Below are positions 57,130 through 63,826 of a stretch of 64,000 nucleotides of DNA, piece by piece. Below the pieces are notes generated by a model. The model made no database searches. It saw nothing but the letters and a program-made list of their open reading frames with translations, and was not told where the DNA came from. This stretch comes from an uncultured Spirochaetota bacterium (GTDB lineage: Bacteria; Spirochaetota; Brevinematia; Brevinematales; JAOACQ01), in assembly GCA_963835575.1 (NCBI GenBank), contig CAWIGG010000002.1, positions 1,981,548 through 2,045,547 on the forward strand, in the 5' to 3' direction. A program made the translations under genes and the position numbers. Numbering within the stretch: position 1 is the first letter of the stretch; every line of letters starts with the position of its first letter.

Positions 57130-58701
57130 AACATGCCACCTGCCTTAAAATGTTTTGGGAATTTTAGTGTTTTGAAAAGTGGTAACATTTCGCCCGGAAC
57201 CCCGGCACATTTCACCGGAATACGCAAGGAGCATTGCATATCTCATGAAGCATCTCTTTTGCCTTTGACTGTAATACTTTGGGCAGCTTGTTTAGAATGT
57301 TCTTTATCTTATGAACCCAGCATCTCTGCCATCTGGATTCAGGATATACTTCTTTGGCTGCTTTCCAGAATCCAAGGCTTCCGTCTCCGATAAAAAGAAT
57401 AGGACCTTTCAAACCTTTTTCTTTTAGGTTTCTTAATATCCCTAACCAAGTCTCGGAATTCTCTCTGTAACCTTCTTCAACAAGAATAATCTCCTTTTCA
57501 CCATTCTCATTGGCTCCGATCATTACAAGAGTGCATAAACGGTCTTCGCTGCCCTGTACATTGAAGTAAATGCCGTCAACCCATATATAGCAATACTTTT
57601 TATCGCTTAAATCGGATGTCCGCCACTCATCATATTCTTTACCCCATCCTTGTTTCATTCTGCTTATACTTGAGGCTGATAATCCTTTCGCTTCTTCACC
57701 AAGCAATCCTCTCAAGGCATTCTCCATATCCATCTCTGAGACTCCATAGAGATACAACAATGGAATGGCTTCCTCAATTCTCAGGCTTTTTCTCATATAC
57801 GGCGGTACTATTAGGCTTTGAAAATTGTCGCCTCCGAGTCGGTTCCTTGTTCTCGGAATACATACATCAATAGCCCCTCCACCAATGAGAATCTGACGGG
57901 CTTTATGATACCCATTTCTTACTATTGCCTTTCTCCCGTCTTCGATAGTTAAATGCTCTCTCTCCTGAAGAAACCCATTAATTTCATCTTCCAGAGCCTT
58001 CTTGATTATTTCCCTGGCCCCGATCCTTGCCAATTCTTCAAGACATAAAAATTCTACTGTTTCATCTTGATTAAAAGCCTGTAAGAGCTTAAAATCTTCG
58101 TTGTGCTTCGGCATATGGCGTATTCCTCCTTTTGTTTATTGTCGTAAATAAATTATAGAGGGTACGCCATCTTTTTTATAATATTTATTCCTATACACAA
58201 CTTTCTATTATAACTCAAAAAAGCATACCCATTATATATAGAAATTGCCAGGATATACTATAAAAATAATGCTTTTACAAATTCTTTAAAATACTATAAA
58301 AAAGGAAATTGGGAAATAGATAAAATTGATTCTTTAATTAATGATTATATTGCTGGAGATATAGATAAATATGAATTCAATGACTCCCTTCCAAAAAAGG
58401 AACCAAAAAAATATTTTGAAGGGTTAAGAGCTTTAAGGAAAGCTGTTGTAGTGATCATTAAAGAAAATGAAGAACAAATAAACATTAGCCTTTCTAAAAA
58501 AGACTCAACACTTGATGAAAGTTTAAATAAAAGATTAAATAACACTCATGACTCAATAATCCAAATATGTACTAAAAATATTGAGGTTTTAAATAAGAAA
58601 GTTACCGTCATTGATACTCTTTTAGATAAATACGCAAGCAAATGACGAACTTTTCAAACGGCATCCGTGCCGTTTTTATACCGACGATTGCCAAGCCCAT
58701 C

Positions 58702-58868: not shown

Positions 58869-60180
58869 TGTGAAATCAGGACATAGGTAACACTTTCCAG
58901 GTATAATTAGGTCAGATCTCATTAAGGAGGCTGACAATGCCCTGGAAGGAGGTTAATATCATGAAGCTGAAATTAGCTTTTATTGAAAAGTCATTCCAAA
59001 AAGGTGTGAACTTTACCGAGCTTTGTACTGAATATGGGATCAGCACAAAAACCGGTTATAAGTGGAAAGAAAGGTTTTATGAAGAAGGGTTGTCCGGTCT
59101 TCAAGAAAAATCTAGGAAACCGCTTTCAAGCCCTAATCAACTTTCTGAAGAAATAATCTGCGAGATCATCCGTATCAAGCAAACGAAGCAGAATTGGGGA
59201 CCTAAGAAAATCAGGTCGGTTTATGTCAGGAACCACCCGGATAATAAAATTCCTTCATTAAGCACTGTCGAAAGGATATTGAAAAAGGCCGGATTTGTAG
59301 AATTAAGGAAAAGAAGACGACACATACATCCGGAAAGAATACAGAACAGGGTAGCACCGAAAAAACCAAATGATATCTGGACAGTGGATTTCAAAGGCTG
59401 GTGGTATACCTCCGAGCAGGAAAGATGCGAACCACTTACAGTACGTGATGATTATTCCAAATATATTTTATCCATAGCCATACTGCAAAAAGGTGATATT
59501 AGTTCCGTCAAATTTGAATTTGACAGACTCTTCAAGCAATATGGATTACCGAGTATGATAAAATCCGATAATGGGCCGCCGTTTGCCAGTACACAGGGTT
59601 TACTTGGTTTAACCAGACTATCAGCATGGTGGTTGTCTCTGGGCATAAAGCTGGACAGAATTGATCCCGGCTCTCCCTATCAGAACGGAGCACATGAAAG
59701 GATGCACCTGGATATGAAAAAGGAACTGGAAAACAAAATCAGCGGTAGCCTGAAGCTGCACCAGGCAGTATTCAACGAATGGAGAAAAGAGTTCAACGAG
59801 GAAAGACCGCATGAAAGCCTTGGAATGAAAACACCAGCAATGGTCTATATAAAATCGGTTAGGAGTTATGATGGGATAGCCGATTGGGTTGTATATCCCA
59901 AGGGATACATCAGCAGAAAGGTTAATAACAGAGGTTACATTTATTATAAAGGTCGGCGTGTATTTATTACAAATGCGTTGGATGGTTATCATATTGGTTT
60001 AAAAAGTAAAAGCAAAGCTTTTATGGATGTGTGGTTTGAAAATAATCTGATAGGTAGTATGGACTTGAATACTTTTATATTTAGGTCTATACTGAAATAG
60101 TAATTCAAGGGCATTTTGTACTCAAAAAGGGTTACCGATGTCCTGAAGCTAAAGTGTAACCTATGTCTTGAAGTCGGACC
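58869..60180 (+). mobile_element. IS481-family element (right end at 60180 or 60186)
   Basis: Left end TGTGAAATCAGGACATAGGTAACACTTT; right end has two inverted copies (GTTACCGATGTCCTGA, GTGTAACCTATGTCTTGA); no TSD. Confidence 0.8.
58937..60100 (+). CDS. IS481-family transposase
   Basis: MPWKE, GISTKTGYKW, WTVDFKG, SDNGPPF, QNGAHERMH, ERPHESL. Confidence 0.9.
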   Translation: MPWKEVNIMKLKLAFIEKSFQKGVNFTELCTEYGISTKTGYKWKERFYEEGLSGLQEKSRKPLSSPNQLSEEIICEIIRIKQTKQNWGPKKIRSVYVRNHPDNKIPSLSTVERILKKAGFVELRKRRRHIHPERIQNRVAPKKPNDIWTVDFKGWWYTSEQERCEPLTVRDDYSKYILSIAILQKGDISSVKFEFDRLFKQYGLPSMIKSDNGPPFASTQGLLGLTRLSAWWLSLGIKLDRIDPGSPYQNGAHERMHLDMKKELENKISGSLKLHQAVFNEWRKEFNEERPHESLGMKTPAMVYIKSVRSYDGIADWVVYPKGYISRKVNNRGYIYYKGRRVFITNALDGYHIGLKSKSKAFMDVWFENNLIGSMDLNTFIFRSILK

Positions 60181-60243
60181 GGCACAGTCTTTGAAATTAA
60201 AACTGTTTTTCATAAGTTAAAATAATATTAAAAGGAGATTTTC

Positions 60244-60630: not shown

Positions 60631-60673
60631 GTTTGCATTTTCTTATAACAATGTGCCCGTAACGGCGTACAAC

Positions 60674-62395
60674 GACCCTGTCGAAAAAGCCAAAAACGAG
60701 AATAAAAACTGTCTTCTGAAAGCCGGATAGAGTATCATTTTTCATTTCTCTATCCGGATTTTCCATTTTTCCAATTTCAAGCCGGTATTATGGCTATGAA
60801 CACCCCCTTAAATCTTACCAAATATCTGGATTTTACCAATATTATGCACTATACAGAACAAAAGCCACTGGATATTAACCTTACTCTTACCCCTGAGCGT
60901 AAAACGGTCCATACCTTTACAAGAACGGATGTTACCGAATACCGGCTCAATTATTCCCATCCTCCGGCTGTACAAATCCCTGATTTCCGGCAGATCAATT
61001 TTATTTACCATTTCTTTTGAATAGTTTTTATCCCCTCTTTTGTCCACCAGATATAATGTTCTTTGCCTTGTCTTATCGGGATGTTTTAAGCATTGTCCCC
61101 TTTTCCCGCATTTTGAACAATCCGCCTGCCTGGCCTGATATTTATGGCCGAAATTACTCAATTGCCTCTGGTATCCCTTATAGCTTAATATTTTTCCATT
61201 CGGGCATATATAAGTATTATCAGCTTCATTTTTTTCAAAATCGTGTTCCCGGTATTTCATCGGTTTCGGCTTGAACCTTCCCCGATCGGTAAACCGTTCA
61301 TCCCTCCCTCGAAATTGATTGTCCGGTATCACAGCTTCCATCTTCTTTTCTTCCGCCAGATATTTTAGATTTTCTTCGCTGAAATAATTCGTGTCCCCCA
61401 GTATTGTTTTTCCTTCCAGCGGATTTGTTTCTCCTTTTATCACGCTTAAATTTTCCTCCGTTATTTCAACCATCGGCTTCAATACTTCCCCTTCCTGGCC
61501 TAAACCAAAAGCTTCCGCCGCGGTAATCACCTGATGCTTTGAATCCACTACCGCAAGTCCATTATAACCTTGTATCACACCGTGGGAACTCTTGATTTTC
61601 GCGCTTTCGTTATCGGTAATATTCGATTGGTTTTCACGTCCCCGCTTGCCGTATTTGGGATTCTGGGATTTGAGAAAGGCATCGATTTTCTCCGCTTTCT
61701 TCCGTATTTTTTCCGATCTTTTTTGAAGCGCTTTAGACTTTTCATTTTCGCCGGAGCAGTCAGCTTGCGCGTGTTTTTCCAGTAGAAATGCCGCCAGCTT
61801 TTCAAACTTTTCCTGTTTCTTTTTCAGGTCTTTGAATGTACCGCTCCATTCTTTAGAAGCGTTTGAAGGCAATTTACAGCCGTCAACGGCGAACATGTCC
61901 CCGCCGATCAATCCCGCAGAAGAACAGACCATCAGCACAAACTGAAATACTATTTTAATCCGGTCTTTCATACCGGTAACAAAAGCGGCTATAGTGGAAT
62001 GGTCTGGAACGGTATTCCCGGACAGGGCTTTGAAGATGACATTCACCCGGCAAGCTTCCTCAATCCTGCGTGATGTAGTAATACCTTTCGAATAGGCAAA
62101 AAGGATTATTTTCAGAAGAATTGCCGGAGAAATCGCTTTCGAGCCTGTTTTATCATTTTTATAATTTATATCAAAACAGGAAAGGTCAGCCTTTTCCTCG
62201 ATTAGGAAATTGAGTGTGTGTTCATATGTTCCTTCGATCAGCTGATCTGAAAAATTGAGCGGTATCATTTCCATCTGCTCATAATTAACTGTCTTGTATC
62301 TTGCCATATAACCTTCCGCTATTGATTTATTTCATTCATTATTTTAAGCTATATCGATAATAATTTACATTAAATATCACTTTTTCGACAGACTC
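60674..62395 (-). mobile_element. IS1182-family element inserted in the R'' box of attC 9
   Basis: TIR GACCCTGTCGAAAAAG / CTTTTTCGACAGACTC (14/16); AAC duplicated at 60671-60673 and 62396-62398. Confidence 0.9.
60808..62307 (-). CDS. IS1182-family transposase (intact)
   Basis: LLKIILFAY, PDHSTIAAF, AVDGCK, NITDNES, QGYNG, RRMGIIEPVFGNI, RFTLRG. Confidence 0.93.
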   Translation of the reverse strand: MARYKTVNYEQMEMIPLNFSDQLIEGTYEHTLNFLIEEKADLSCFDINYKNDKTGSKAISPAILLKIILFAYSKGITTSRRIEEACRVNVIFKALSGNTVPDHSTIAAFVTGMKDRIKIVFQFVLMVCSSAGLIGGDMFAVDGCKLPSNASKEWSGTFKDLKKKQEKFEKLAAFLLEKHAQADCSGENEKSKALQKRSEKIRKKAEKIDAFLKSQNPKYGKRGRENQSNITDNESAKIKSSHGVIQGYNGLAVVDSKHQVITAAEAFGLGQEGEVLKPMVEITEENLSVIKGETNPLEGKTILGDTNYFSEENLKYLAEEKKMEAVIPDNQFRGRDERFTDRGRFKPKPMKYREHDFEKNEADNTYICPNGKILSYKGYQRQLSNFGHKYQARQADCSKCGKRGQCLKHPDKTRQRTLYLVDKRGDKNYSKEMVNKIDLPEIRDLYSRRMGIIEPVFGNIRSCKGMDRFTLRGKSKVNIQWLLFCIVHNIGKIQIFGKI

Positions 62396-62537
62396 AACAG
62401 CGGCTAAAACGCTGCGGTGCTCGGGTTCGCCTTGCCGGAAGTAGGACGGAGAAGCAAAACGCAAGGCTCACCAAACCCGTTCGCCTACAGCGGAGCTGTA
62501 CGGCTCACGGGCTTCGCATAGCCGCGAAACGTTGTAC
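62392..62537 (+). repeat. attC 9 (146 bp, class A); original R'' GTACAAC displaced to 60667-60673
   Basis: ACTCAAC-AGCG-GCTAAAAC ... GTTGTAC. Confidence 0.85.
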
Positions 62538-62603
62538 GAAAGCCAGGGCGGCGGCTTTATTTGAATGATATATATATGATCAAATTACTAAGGAGGTAAT
62601 AAA

Positions 62604-63530
62604 ATGAGATTAATTTCTTTAGTGATTTTCGCCGTGGTGCAGATTATTTTTATTCCCCTATTTATTATTGGTGGAATTCTATTATCCATCAACCAATTGC
62701 TTGTCAGTAAAAAGTTGGGAGTCTCCGGCACAGCCATTTCCGCAATCGGCGCAAGGTGGGTTTTAAATTTTTATGGAATGAGAAAAGATCCATCAGCTGA
62801 AAAACTATATCGCTCACTTCCGAATGGTTCTGAAATAGGCTTATGGATGCTTTATTTTCCTAGATATCTTCGGTACAAAATATATCCTAAATTAGAAGAG
62901 GAAGGTAAGGAAAGTATCATTAATGTTCCTGTTGCTAGAACATTTTATTTCGATAAACTTATCAATAAATCAAAGAATAAAGTCGAGCAATTTATTGTCA
63001 TGGGCGCAGGTTATGATACCAGATGCTACGGTGATCTCAAAAGTAATAGTTTAAGGTTTTTTGAACTGGATCAAGCAGCGACTCAGAAACTAAAAATAGA
63101 ATGCTTAAAAAGGGCTGGTATTGATGCATCTCATGTTACTTTTGTTGATGTGGATTTTGCTACAGAAAAGTGGTATGAGAAACTTGAAAAAGCGGGTTAT
63201 AATCCAAGTAAAAAATCTATTTTTTTATGGGAAGGAGTAACTATCTATCTTTCTGAAAATGACATTCGAAAGACAATAAAAGAAATACAAGGACATGCTG
63301 CATCAAACAGTATATTATTAGCCGATTTTTATTCAAAAAGGTTGACTGCACTACAAGGTGTAAAATCTACCAATGAAAATTTTGGATTTGGTTTGGATTT
63401 TTCAGTAAACCAAGAAAATGTTTTAAAAACATTCATAGAGAGTGAAAATGTAAGTTTGGGTGATTTCTATTTTATTGGACACAAAACAAAAAAAGGTGCC
63501 TTTGGGGTCGTAGCTGAAATTATTTTATAG
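62604..63530 (+). CDS. SAM-dependent methyltransferase, leucine carboxyl methyltransferase-like (cassette 10)
   Basis: ARTFYFD, MGAGYDTR, FFELDQ, FLWEGVTIYL. Confidence 0.88.
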   Translation: MRLISLVIFAVVQIIFIPLFIIGGILLSINQLLVSKKLGVSGTAISAIGARWVLNFYGMRKDPSAEKLYRSLPNGSEIGLWMLYFPRYLRYKIYPKLEEEGKESIINVPVARTFYFDKLINKSKNKVEQFIVMGAGYDTRCYGDLKSNSLRFFELDQAATQKLKIECLKRAGIDASHVTFVDVDFATEKWYEKLEKAGYNPSKKSIFLWEGVTIYLSENDIRKTIKEIQGHAASNSILLADFYSKRLTALQGVKSTNENFGFGLDFSVNQENVLKTFIESENVSLGDFYFIGHKTKKGAFGVVAEIIL

Positions 63531-63556
63531 ATTTTATTCGATACGCCCTGGCCTTC

Positions 63557-63826
63557 GTACAACGAGACTGTAGAAAAAGTGATATTTTGAGAAAATACCA
63601 AAATATAACTTATTGCAAAATATAGAATTATAATTTCACAAATTTGTGAAAAAGGACTTTTTCTACAGATTCAACAGCGCGTAGACGCTACGCTCCGTGC
63701 TCGCAAGCTGCGCGCGGTCCTCGGCCCTTCGGGCAAATTTGCCTTTGGCACACGTTTTTGCTGCGGCAAAAAGATGTGCCAATCGCTGGCGCGACCGGCA
63801 AACTTCGTCTACGCGCACCGTTGTAT
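63557..63826 (+). repeat. attC 10 (158 bp without the MITE, class B)
   Basis: R'' GTACAAC, MITE, AAC-AGCGCGTAGAC ... GTCTACGCGC-ACC-GTTGTAT. Confidence 0.85.
63564..63672. mobile_element. 109-bp MITE inserted in the R'' box of attC 10
   Basis: TIR GAGACTGTAGAAAAAG / CTTTTTCTACAGATTC; AAC duplicated; 22/24 identity to one end of the IS at 60674-62395. Confidence 0.85.

Follow-up and report, generated by a model that had tools for sequence, protein, structure and literature searches.

The window analysed here is a stretch of 64,000 nucleotides (nt) from an uncultured Spirochaetota bacterium (assembly GCA_963835575.1, contig CAWIGG010000002.1, positions 1,981,548 to 2,045,547 of the forward strand), whose genome is referred to as G000. 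The last 17 kb of the window are an array of gene cassettes, and two mobile elements interrupt attC sites of this array at the same nucleotide: a 1,722-base-pair (bp) insertion sequence (IS), called IS-A, and a 109-bp miniature inverted-repeat transposable element (MITE). Both lie directly after the GTACAAC of an attC R'' box, and the AAC that ends this box recurs on the far side of each element (Table 1). The two host sites belong to different sequence classes, A and B (AGCGGCTAAAACGCTGCGG versus AGCGCGTAGACGCTACGCTCC). A first-pass annotation of the window had described these positions, the AAC duplications, the two host classes and the intact transposase gene, and all of them are borne out. 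Because same-class attC copies that carry no insertion read ...GCTTAAC-AGCGGCTAAAACGC, with AAC once only, the AAC flanks are a true duplication of the target. With the element and one AAC removed, both host sites fold as long hairpins ending in GTTGTAC or GTTGTAT; the reconstructed empty sites are 146 nt long for class A (-33.9 kcal/mol) and 158 nt for class B (-49.4 kcal/mol), each with paired ends. We propose that IS-A represents a clade of IS1182-family DDE insertion sequences that, together with the MITEs they mobilise, very probably targets the conserved GTT/AAC triplet of integron attC sites.

Table 1. Features around the two insertions at the end of the cassette array (window positions; aa, amino acids; ORF, open reading frame)
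Feature	Position	Strand	Remarks
R'' box GTACAAC of class-A attC	60667..60673	+	AAC 60671-60673: left-hand AAC of the duplicated target; polarity from cassette boundaries
IS-A, IS1182-family insertion sequence, 1722 bp	60674..62395	-	
Terminal inverted repeat GACCCTGTCGAAAAAG, transposase-start-distal end of IS-A	60674..60689	+	
Transposase of IS-A, 499 aa, antisense to cassettes	60808..62307	-	DUF772, DDE_Tnp_1, DDE_Tnp_1_6
Terminal inverted repeat GAGTCTGTCGAAAAAG (minus strand), transposase-start-proximal end of IS-A	62380..62395	-	with AAC gives ACTCAAC
Duplicated AAC (62396-62398), then remaining class-A attC to R' core GTTGTAC (62531-62537)	62396..62537	+	
Cassette ORF, 308 aa, leucine carboxyl methyltransferase family	62604..63530	+	
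R'' box GTACAAC of class-B attC	63557..63563	+	
MITE, 109 bp, non-coding, ends GAGACTGTAGAAAAAG and CTTTTTCTACAGATTC	63564..63672	+	one locus in the genome
Duplicated AAC (63673-63675), then remaining class-B attC to R' GTTGTAT (63820-63826)	63673..63826	+	

The ends of IS-A, GACCCTGTCGAAAAAG and CTTTTTCGACAGACTC, are 16-bp inverted repeats that agree at 14 of 16 positions. An end motif, CTGTMGAAAAAG, has four matches in the window (0.87 expected), all of them at the four ends of the IS and the MITE. Recomputation confirms the earlier observation that the right end of IS-A and the left end of the MITE are identical at 22 of 24 positions. The accompanying statement that the two elements are oppositely oriented holds for this end but not for the other, both MITE ends resembling the transposase-proximal ends of the IS variants in this genome. 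The attC-side end of the MITE (...CTACAGATTC before AAC) is identical at 16 of 16 nt to the right, transposase-proximal end of two such variants, IS-B and IS-C. The element has the characteristics of a MITE, being short and non-coding, with inverted repeats like those of resident IS elements and the same target duplication. It occupies one locus in G000, and a second BLAST match is the overlapping end of another contig. The start of that contig, C5 (1 to ~1765), repeats the last 1.8 kb of the window, which lies on contig C2, with IS end, cassette and MITE at identical spacing. The array therefore continues into C5, and the IS fragment that opens C5 and the end of the window represent a single locus.

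The predicted transposase of IS-A matches the Pfam families DDE_Tnp_1_6 (5.7e-23), DUF772 (1.8e-14) and DDE_Tnp_1 (2.6e-11). Residues D142, D305 and E454 are invariant in 35 homologues and, judging from the IS4/IS5-type motif, would form the DDE catalytic triad; four invariant cysteines (C368, C397, C400 and C406) lie between D305 and E454. Members of the IS1182 family are about 1.3-1.95 kb long according to ISfinder tables, and IS-A fits this family both in length and in its terminal inverted repeats. Homologues at 47-64% identity bear the NCBI name "IS1182 family transposase". The Pfam architecture and these names support the earlier proposal that the element belongs to a DDE IS1182-family lineage. 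Two other identities were rejected. Elements of the IS1111-attC group would have a DEDD (IS110-type) transposase, and only DDE_Tnp_1-type domains are present. A group IIC-attC intron is also not indicated, there being no Rfam match in the window and the sole long ORF of the element encoding the DDE transposase. The Rfam scan of the window matched no family, intron or otherwise, and hence is unusable as an attC model.

The polarity of the host arrays can be read from a 584-bp cassette that is present in eight copies in different contexts. These copies are identical from (G)TTAAGCG through the ORF and hairpin to ...AAAC-GTT, and diverge immediately past this distal GTT. The point of divergence shows that the cassettes are built as in integrons, with an ORF followed by attC, and with crossover in the distal R' GTT. 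The IS and the MITE therefore lie inside their cassettes, at the non-crossover end, where they adjoin the AAC of the cassette-proximal R'' box, and the transposase gene reads antisense to the genes of the cassettes. The host sites also have the imperfect inverted repeats R''/R' and L''/L', the hairpin and the crossover in the R' GTT by which attC sites are recognised. No gene in G000 scores above the 265-bit cut-off of TIGR02249, the model for the integron integrase IntI, so "attC" in this genome denotes the attC of an integron-like system. A first attC scan of the window by energy density was dropped, having given only nine candidates, some of them overlapping. In the methyltransferase cassette (Table 1), the start (62531-62550) and the end (63545-63563) are complementary for ~19 nt beyond the R boxes (GTTGTACGAAAGCCAGGGC versus GCCCTGGCCTTCGTACAAC), so that a circular form of this cassette would have an extended attC stem.

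In G000, BLAST detects IS-A in six full copies, five of them 100% identical and one 99.9%, in addition to fragments at contig ends. Two variants accompany them: IS-B (1717 bp, C3:1652-3368; transposase 57% identical) and IS-C (1723 bp, C5:421957-423679; 81% identical). When two contig-end halves are counted once, there are ten independent insertions, namely seven of IS-A and one each of IS-B, IS-C and the MITE. Every copy in the genome follows ...YAAC and is followed by AAC, always AAC in the orientation of the element. Eight of the ten insertions lie at the AAC of a cassette-proximal attC R'' box, in one orientation throughout, and their hosts comprise at least three sequence classes with lengths of 59 to ~215 nt. 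The genome contains 120,727 AAC and 41,449 YAAC sites, and 43 attC-like places (BLAST with two class queries). By rough arithmetic, the chance that eight of ten insertions would fall in attC is below 1e-15, even if one-tenth of the genome tolerates insertion. These counts support the conclusion that the AAC of the attC R'' box receives insertions of this lineage far more often than expected by chance. The first-pass annotation had asked whether other copies, once mapped with their flanks, would sit mostly at AAC sites unrelated to attC, and they do not. A 10-mer common to class-A targets, GC[CG]G[CT]TGTT[AG], occurs 154 times in G000, only 16 of them within the 43 attC places, and the insertions that bear it fall in attC in four of four cases. 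None of the ten insertions is at R', though R' likewise reads GTTR.

Relatives of the transposase (E<=1e-60) were found in two of 40 related genomes searched besides G000. These two, G006 and G009, represent another genus of the same bacterial family, and their transposases are 54-57% identical to that of IS-A. In G006, all eight distinct right junctions (seven IS, one MITE) read AAC followed by attC-like sequence, which includes AGCGGCTATA..., AGCGCGTAGACGC... and AACAGCT..., and the distinct left junctions end in ACAAC or ATAAC in six of six cases. The single right junction in G009 is also AAC followed by attC-like sequence. The G006 MITE, 108 bp in length, is homologous to the window MITE over its whole length, resides in an attC, and has the same orientation relative to that attC. 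Insertions at R' are absent from all 17 attC events in the three genomes.

In a profile-guided scan that covered one genome per species, 609 stretches gave a match, and 582 of these proved to be relatives. The best 80 of these 582 loci, which were used for the following comparisons, come from many phyla and have 41-56% protein identity, and their IS ends read GAGNCTGT[AC]GAAAAA. Among 58 unique complete sites from these loci, the target duplication is GTT at 50, and the others are GCT (3), CCA (2), TGC (1), GCA (1) and AAC (1). On the transposase strand, the target logo is T(-13)...G-G-C(-4, 88%)-GTT^A(88%)-[G/T], with the insertion at the caret. In terms of the published attC consensus, it resembles the right-hand simple site plus the core GTTRRRY. 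Paralogous attC sites that lack the IS in the same arrays have one GTT where the occupied site has GTT-IS-GTT. On each flank, the neighbouring ORF shares the orientation of the transposase at 25 sites and does not at 10, and both neighbours share it at 18 of 38 sites; the upstream stop codon and the IS are separated by a median of ~95 nt. In canonical arrays the IS is thus located at the R' end.

Integron integrases were sought in 15 genomes selected for long contigs. A TIGR02249 IntI above the curated cut-off is present in 11 of them, and in six an IS copy is located at a distance of 0.7-12 kb from IntI, on the contig of the same number; with the exception of one copy, the IS is found on the cassette side of IntI. 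None of five comparison genomes, four with other duplications and one reading AAC, has an IntI above the cut-off. In a quick tree from which proteins shorter than 430 aa and exact duplicates were excluded, the duplications resolved within one clade (SH-aLRT 100) are GTT, with AAC in a few rows. The spirochaete elements form a subclade inside it, and the GCT, CCA, GCA and TGC rows are outside; row G006b represents an erroneous 381-aa frame, and its long branch is to be disregarded as junk. Position -4 of the target is T in the spirochaete subclade, which uses R'' targets, and C in the wider clade, which uses R' targets.

A plasmid collection contains two records with a relative at E<=1e-60, both of them unannotated Pseudoalteromonas chromids, and no link to clinical plasmid integrons was found in this collection. 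One locus (L107), in the Pseudoalteromonas piscicida chromid NZ_CP074588.1 at 760.7-762.6 kb, carries a frameshifted relative with 40% identity. Its junction is ...ACAACGGCGTT-IS-GTTATAT (GGCGTT-IS-GTTA), and at least seven short co-oriented ORFs follow, ~100 nt apart. From this arrangement, the surroundings look like an unannotated cassette array.

Several observations weigh against the proposed targeting of attC. Two of the ten insertions in G000 are outside attC, at YAAC sites: one is intergenic, next to a terminator-like hairpin, and the other interrupts a 343-codon frame. The G000 arrays are not headed by an IntI with the IntI-specific insertion, and the best integrase-like genes match TIGR02249 in two pieces (2-172 and 235-313), skipping the IntI-specific region. 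In nine of the 15 selected genomes, IntI is absent, fragmentary or on another contig. A rule that requires an R box with a contiguous L box of at least five positions is matched by 7 of the 47 real sites tested, compared with 83 of 1071 GTTR controls, and with at least six positions by 2 of 47 versus 26 of 1071. Constrained-fold energies compared with those of 40 dinucleotide shuffles give p<=0.05 at only 9 of 47 sites, in a test of low power: a textbook-looking attC of 55 nt (L076) scored p=0.32. Because of their low power, these generic detectors were not used as support, and given their weak results most sites of the wider clade are individually unproven as attC. A Nitrospirota genome has seven copies and no IntI match at E<=1e-40, and the targets of these copies are GTT triplets in small hairpin loops (GG..GG-ACGTTA-CC..CC), with compensatory changes in the stems, and are not the feet of attC sites. 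Finally, selective loss of harmful insertions must contribute to the observed pattern, and is inseparable from targeting here.

The hairpin in the Nitrospirota metagenome-assembled genome (loci L032-L037 and L045, ~1300-1480 with the IS removed) resides within a short element of ~120 nt whose own ends resemble the inverted repeats of the IS family under study. In the five copies that show it, this element is central in a long palindrome with arms of ~25-37 bp that differ from copy to copy. It looks like a MITE that targets the apices of hairpins.

The proposal that the clade targets attC is founded on position, duplication, polarity, recurrence (in three IS variants, a MITE and many genomes) and proximity to IntI, all of which are directly observed. 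The transposase would make a cut staggered by 3 nt around the GTT/AAC triplet, and such a cut would lead to the duplication of this triplet. On the transposase-coding strand, polarity would follow the rule 5'-(attC stem)-GTT^R-3', with the body of attC upstream of the transposase-proximal end. Applied to spirochaete arrays, this rule would put the IS within a cassette and antisense to it, at the cassette-proximal R'' box, and would leave the R' crossover untouched. Applied to canonical integrons of other phyla, it would yield an IS at the R' core site that reads in the direction of the cassettes. The targeting of AAC in R'', as formulated in the first-pass annotation, therefore describes G000, G006 and G009, but canonical integrons use R' and one lineage uses hairpin loops outside attC. 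Strict polarity and the choice of a single attC end show an asymmetric read-out that reaches beyond the triplet. Since the targets share a stem beside the triplet and little sequence, and since IS1272, of the same family, targets hairpins, we favour combined recognition of motif and stem. The transposase may read a short sequence (~GGC/GYT-GTT-R) plus the adjacent stem or secondary structure, as published for IS1272.

A short sequence preference, either YGTT^R or a motif of 8-10 nt, might instead suffice if harmful insertions elsewhere have been lost, and if attC sites are among the few harmless places with the motif. Such a preference would be in keeping with the two G000 copies at YAAC sites outside attC, with the compact logo GGC-GTT-A of the wider clade, and with the location of non-attC motif sites in G000, which are mostly in coding sequence. 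The T at -4 in spirochaetes versus C in the wider clade also fits a sequence read-out that picks R'' over R'. However, it is difficult to reconcile with eight of ten insertions in ~40-60 attC R'' sites out of 41,449 YAAC, and with targeted attC classes that share little beyond the triplet and a GC-rich stem. The identity of five of the six full IS-A copies leaves little time for slow purging, and both the lack of R' events in three genomes and the location of the Nitrospirota copies, seven of seven in one kind of hairpin loop, count against sequence preference as well. We therefore consider this explanation unlikely. It is very improbable that the AAC/GTT flank is a crossover core and that the integron integrase inserts a circular IS at the triplet like a cassette: the triplet is indeed the integrase's own conserved one, the IS in canonical arrays is bounded by GTT, split after the G, on both sides exactly like an inserted cassette, and integrase genes lie near the IS in six of 15 genomes, but the G000 and G006 insertions are at R'' and not at the mapped crossover site, and an identical 3-bp duplication accompanies both insertions outside attC and those in a genome that gave no IntI match. 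The elements also possess classical terminal inverted repeats, their DDE transposase is intact, and sister lineages duplicate other 3-bp sequences (GCT, CCA, GCA).

Under the preferred explanation, targeting of attC by the transposase, the fate of the interrupted site is of interest. The insertions had been said to rebuild the attC box. In G000, the end of IS-A plus AAC does read RYYYAAC (ACTCAAC). Of 53 distinct IS ends in the wider clade, taken together with GTT, 52 conform to GTTRRR but only 18 to the complete GTTRRRY. A terminal GAG is also present in relatives with other duplications, and is therefore ancestral and not evidently an adaptation. Rebuilding of the box is thus real as sequence and is partly supported, whereas its adaptive status is not evident. 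A purine-rich IS end (GAG or GAA) past the retained triplet would create an R-box-like sequence, the integrase may still use such an attC, and the IS could then ride along with the cassette. All flanks differ among the copies compared in G000, G006 and G009, and no cassette was found together with its IS in two contexts.

These considerations allow a more far-reaching idea, which we regard as possible but doubtful. A pan-phylum "IS1182-attC" clade may have evolved to mimic the cassette boundary, with the GTT duplication and the purine-rich end yielding a working attC. The IS would then be part of a cassette: in canonical integrons it would supply the 5' leader of the cassette that follows, and in spirochaete arrays a 3' part of its own cassette. 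If this is true, the integron integrase would shuffle and spread a DDE transposon. The strict polarity of the IS would also be a sequence-independent marker of attC strand identity, and would aid the detection of non-canonical integrons, that of G000 among them.

A further IS family in G000 likewise occupies a fixed position relative to attC. A member of the IS481 family (rve, LZ_Tnp_IS481) occupies ~58872-60187 of the window, with its ORF at 58937-60100 on the plus strand, and other copies are at C2:2270-3578, C2:1246728-1248033, C6:414406-415716 and C6:167501-168806. All five copies start ~16-21 nt past the GTT of an attC R' box, in one orientation, each in the 5' leader of a different cassette. 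Next to the window copy, the same array contains a 300-aa fragment of an IS256/Mutator-family transposase (57212-58114, minus strand).

To our knowledge, only two kinds of mobile element have been described as homing to attC, and neither is a classical DDE transposon. One is the IS1111-attC group of the IS110/IS1111 family (ISPa21, ISKpn4, ISUnCu1 and relatives), reportedly described by Tetu and Holmes in 2008 and by Post and Hall in 2009. IS1111-attC elements encode a transposase of the DEDD type, have no classical terminal inverted repeats and are not known to duplicate their target in this way, whereas IS-A has a DDE IS1182-family enzyme, 16-bp inverted repeats and a 3-bp duplication. They resemble the present elements in their fixed position and single orientation in the attC sites of different cassettes, and in their use of the integron as a harmless landing place. 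Passages of two papers cite them as known attC-targeting elements (PMC11089894, PMC3971601), and another paper states that members of the IS110/IS1111 family select their targets by guide RNA (PMC11187229). The other kind consists of group IIC-attC introns, for example S.ma.I2, which according to excerpts of two papers home to attC stem-loops in fixed orientation (PMC3001079, PMC7923331). These introns share mobility, attC homing and fixed orientation with the elements described here, but are retroelements composed of a ribozyme and a reverse transcriptase.

The present clade is like the IS1182 family generally in domain architecture, length and inverted repeats. The staphylococcal member IS1272/TnSha1 is reported, in the sections of two papers that concern it, to select DNA hairpins such as terminators and not a primary sequence (PMC4923244, PMC5678879). 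One of these sections quotes Siguier et al. 2015 to the effect that some IS1182 members target palindromes (PMC4923244). IS1272 and the present clade thus share their family and their hairpin targets. However, IS1272 inserts in both orientations and without a sequence consensus, leaves its target unduplicated and removes part of the hairpin, whereas in the present clade exactly GTT/AAC is duplicated, the hairpin stays intact, polarity is fixed and the insertions are associated with integron attC sites. Full-text literature searches, with ISfinder and TnPedia outside their scope, found no description of attC targeting by the IS1182 family. The relevant passages of a cassette-amplicon survey report many IS5-, IS3- and IS110-type transposases, and discuss targeting for IS1111 only (PMC11089894).

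A widespread DDE clade with nucleotide-exact, oriented insertion into attC would represent a third way in which integrons and transposons become linked. It would supply a tractable system for studying how a DDE transposase reads structured DNA, a question left open by the work on IS1272, and would serve as a natural probe of the parts of attC that the integrase really needs. Such elements would also flag integron-like arrays in phyla where detection based on the integrase fails.

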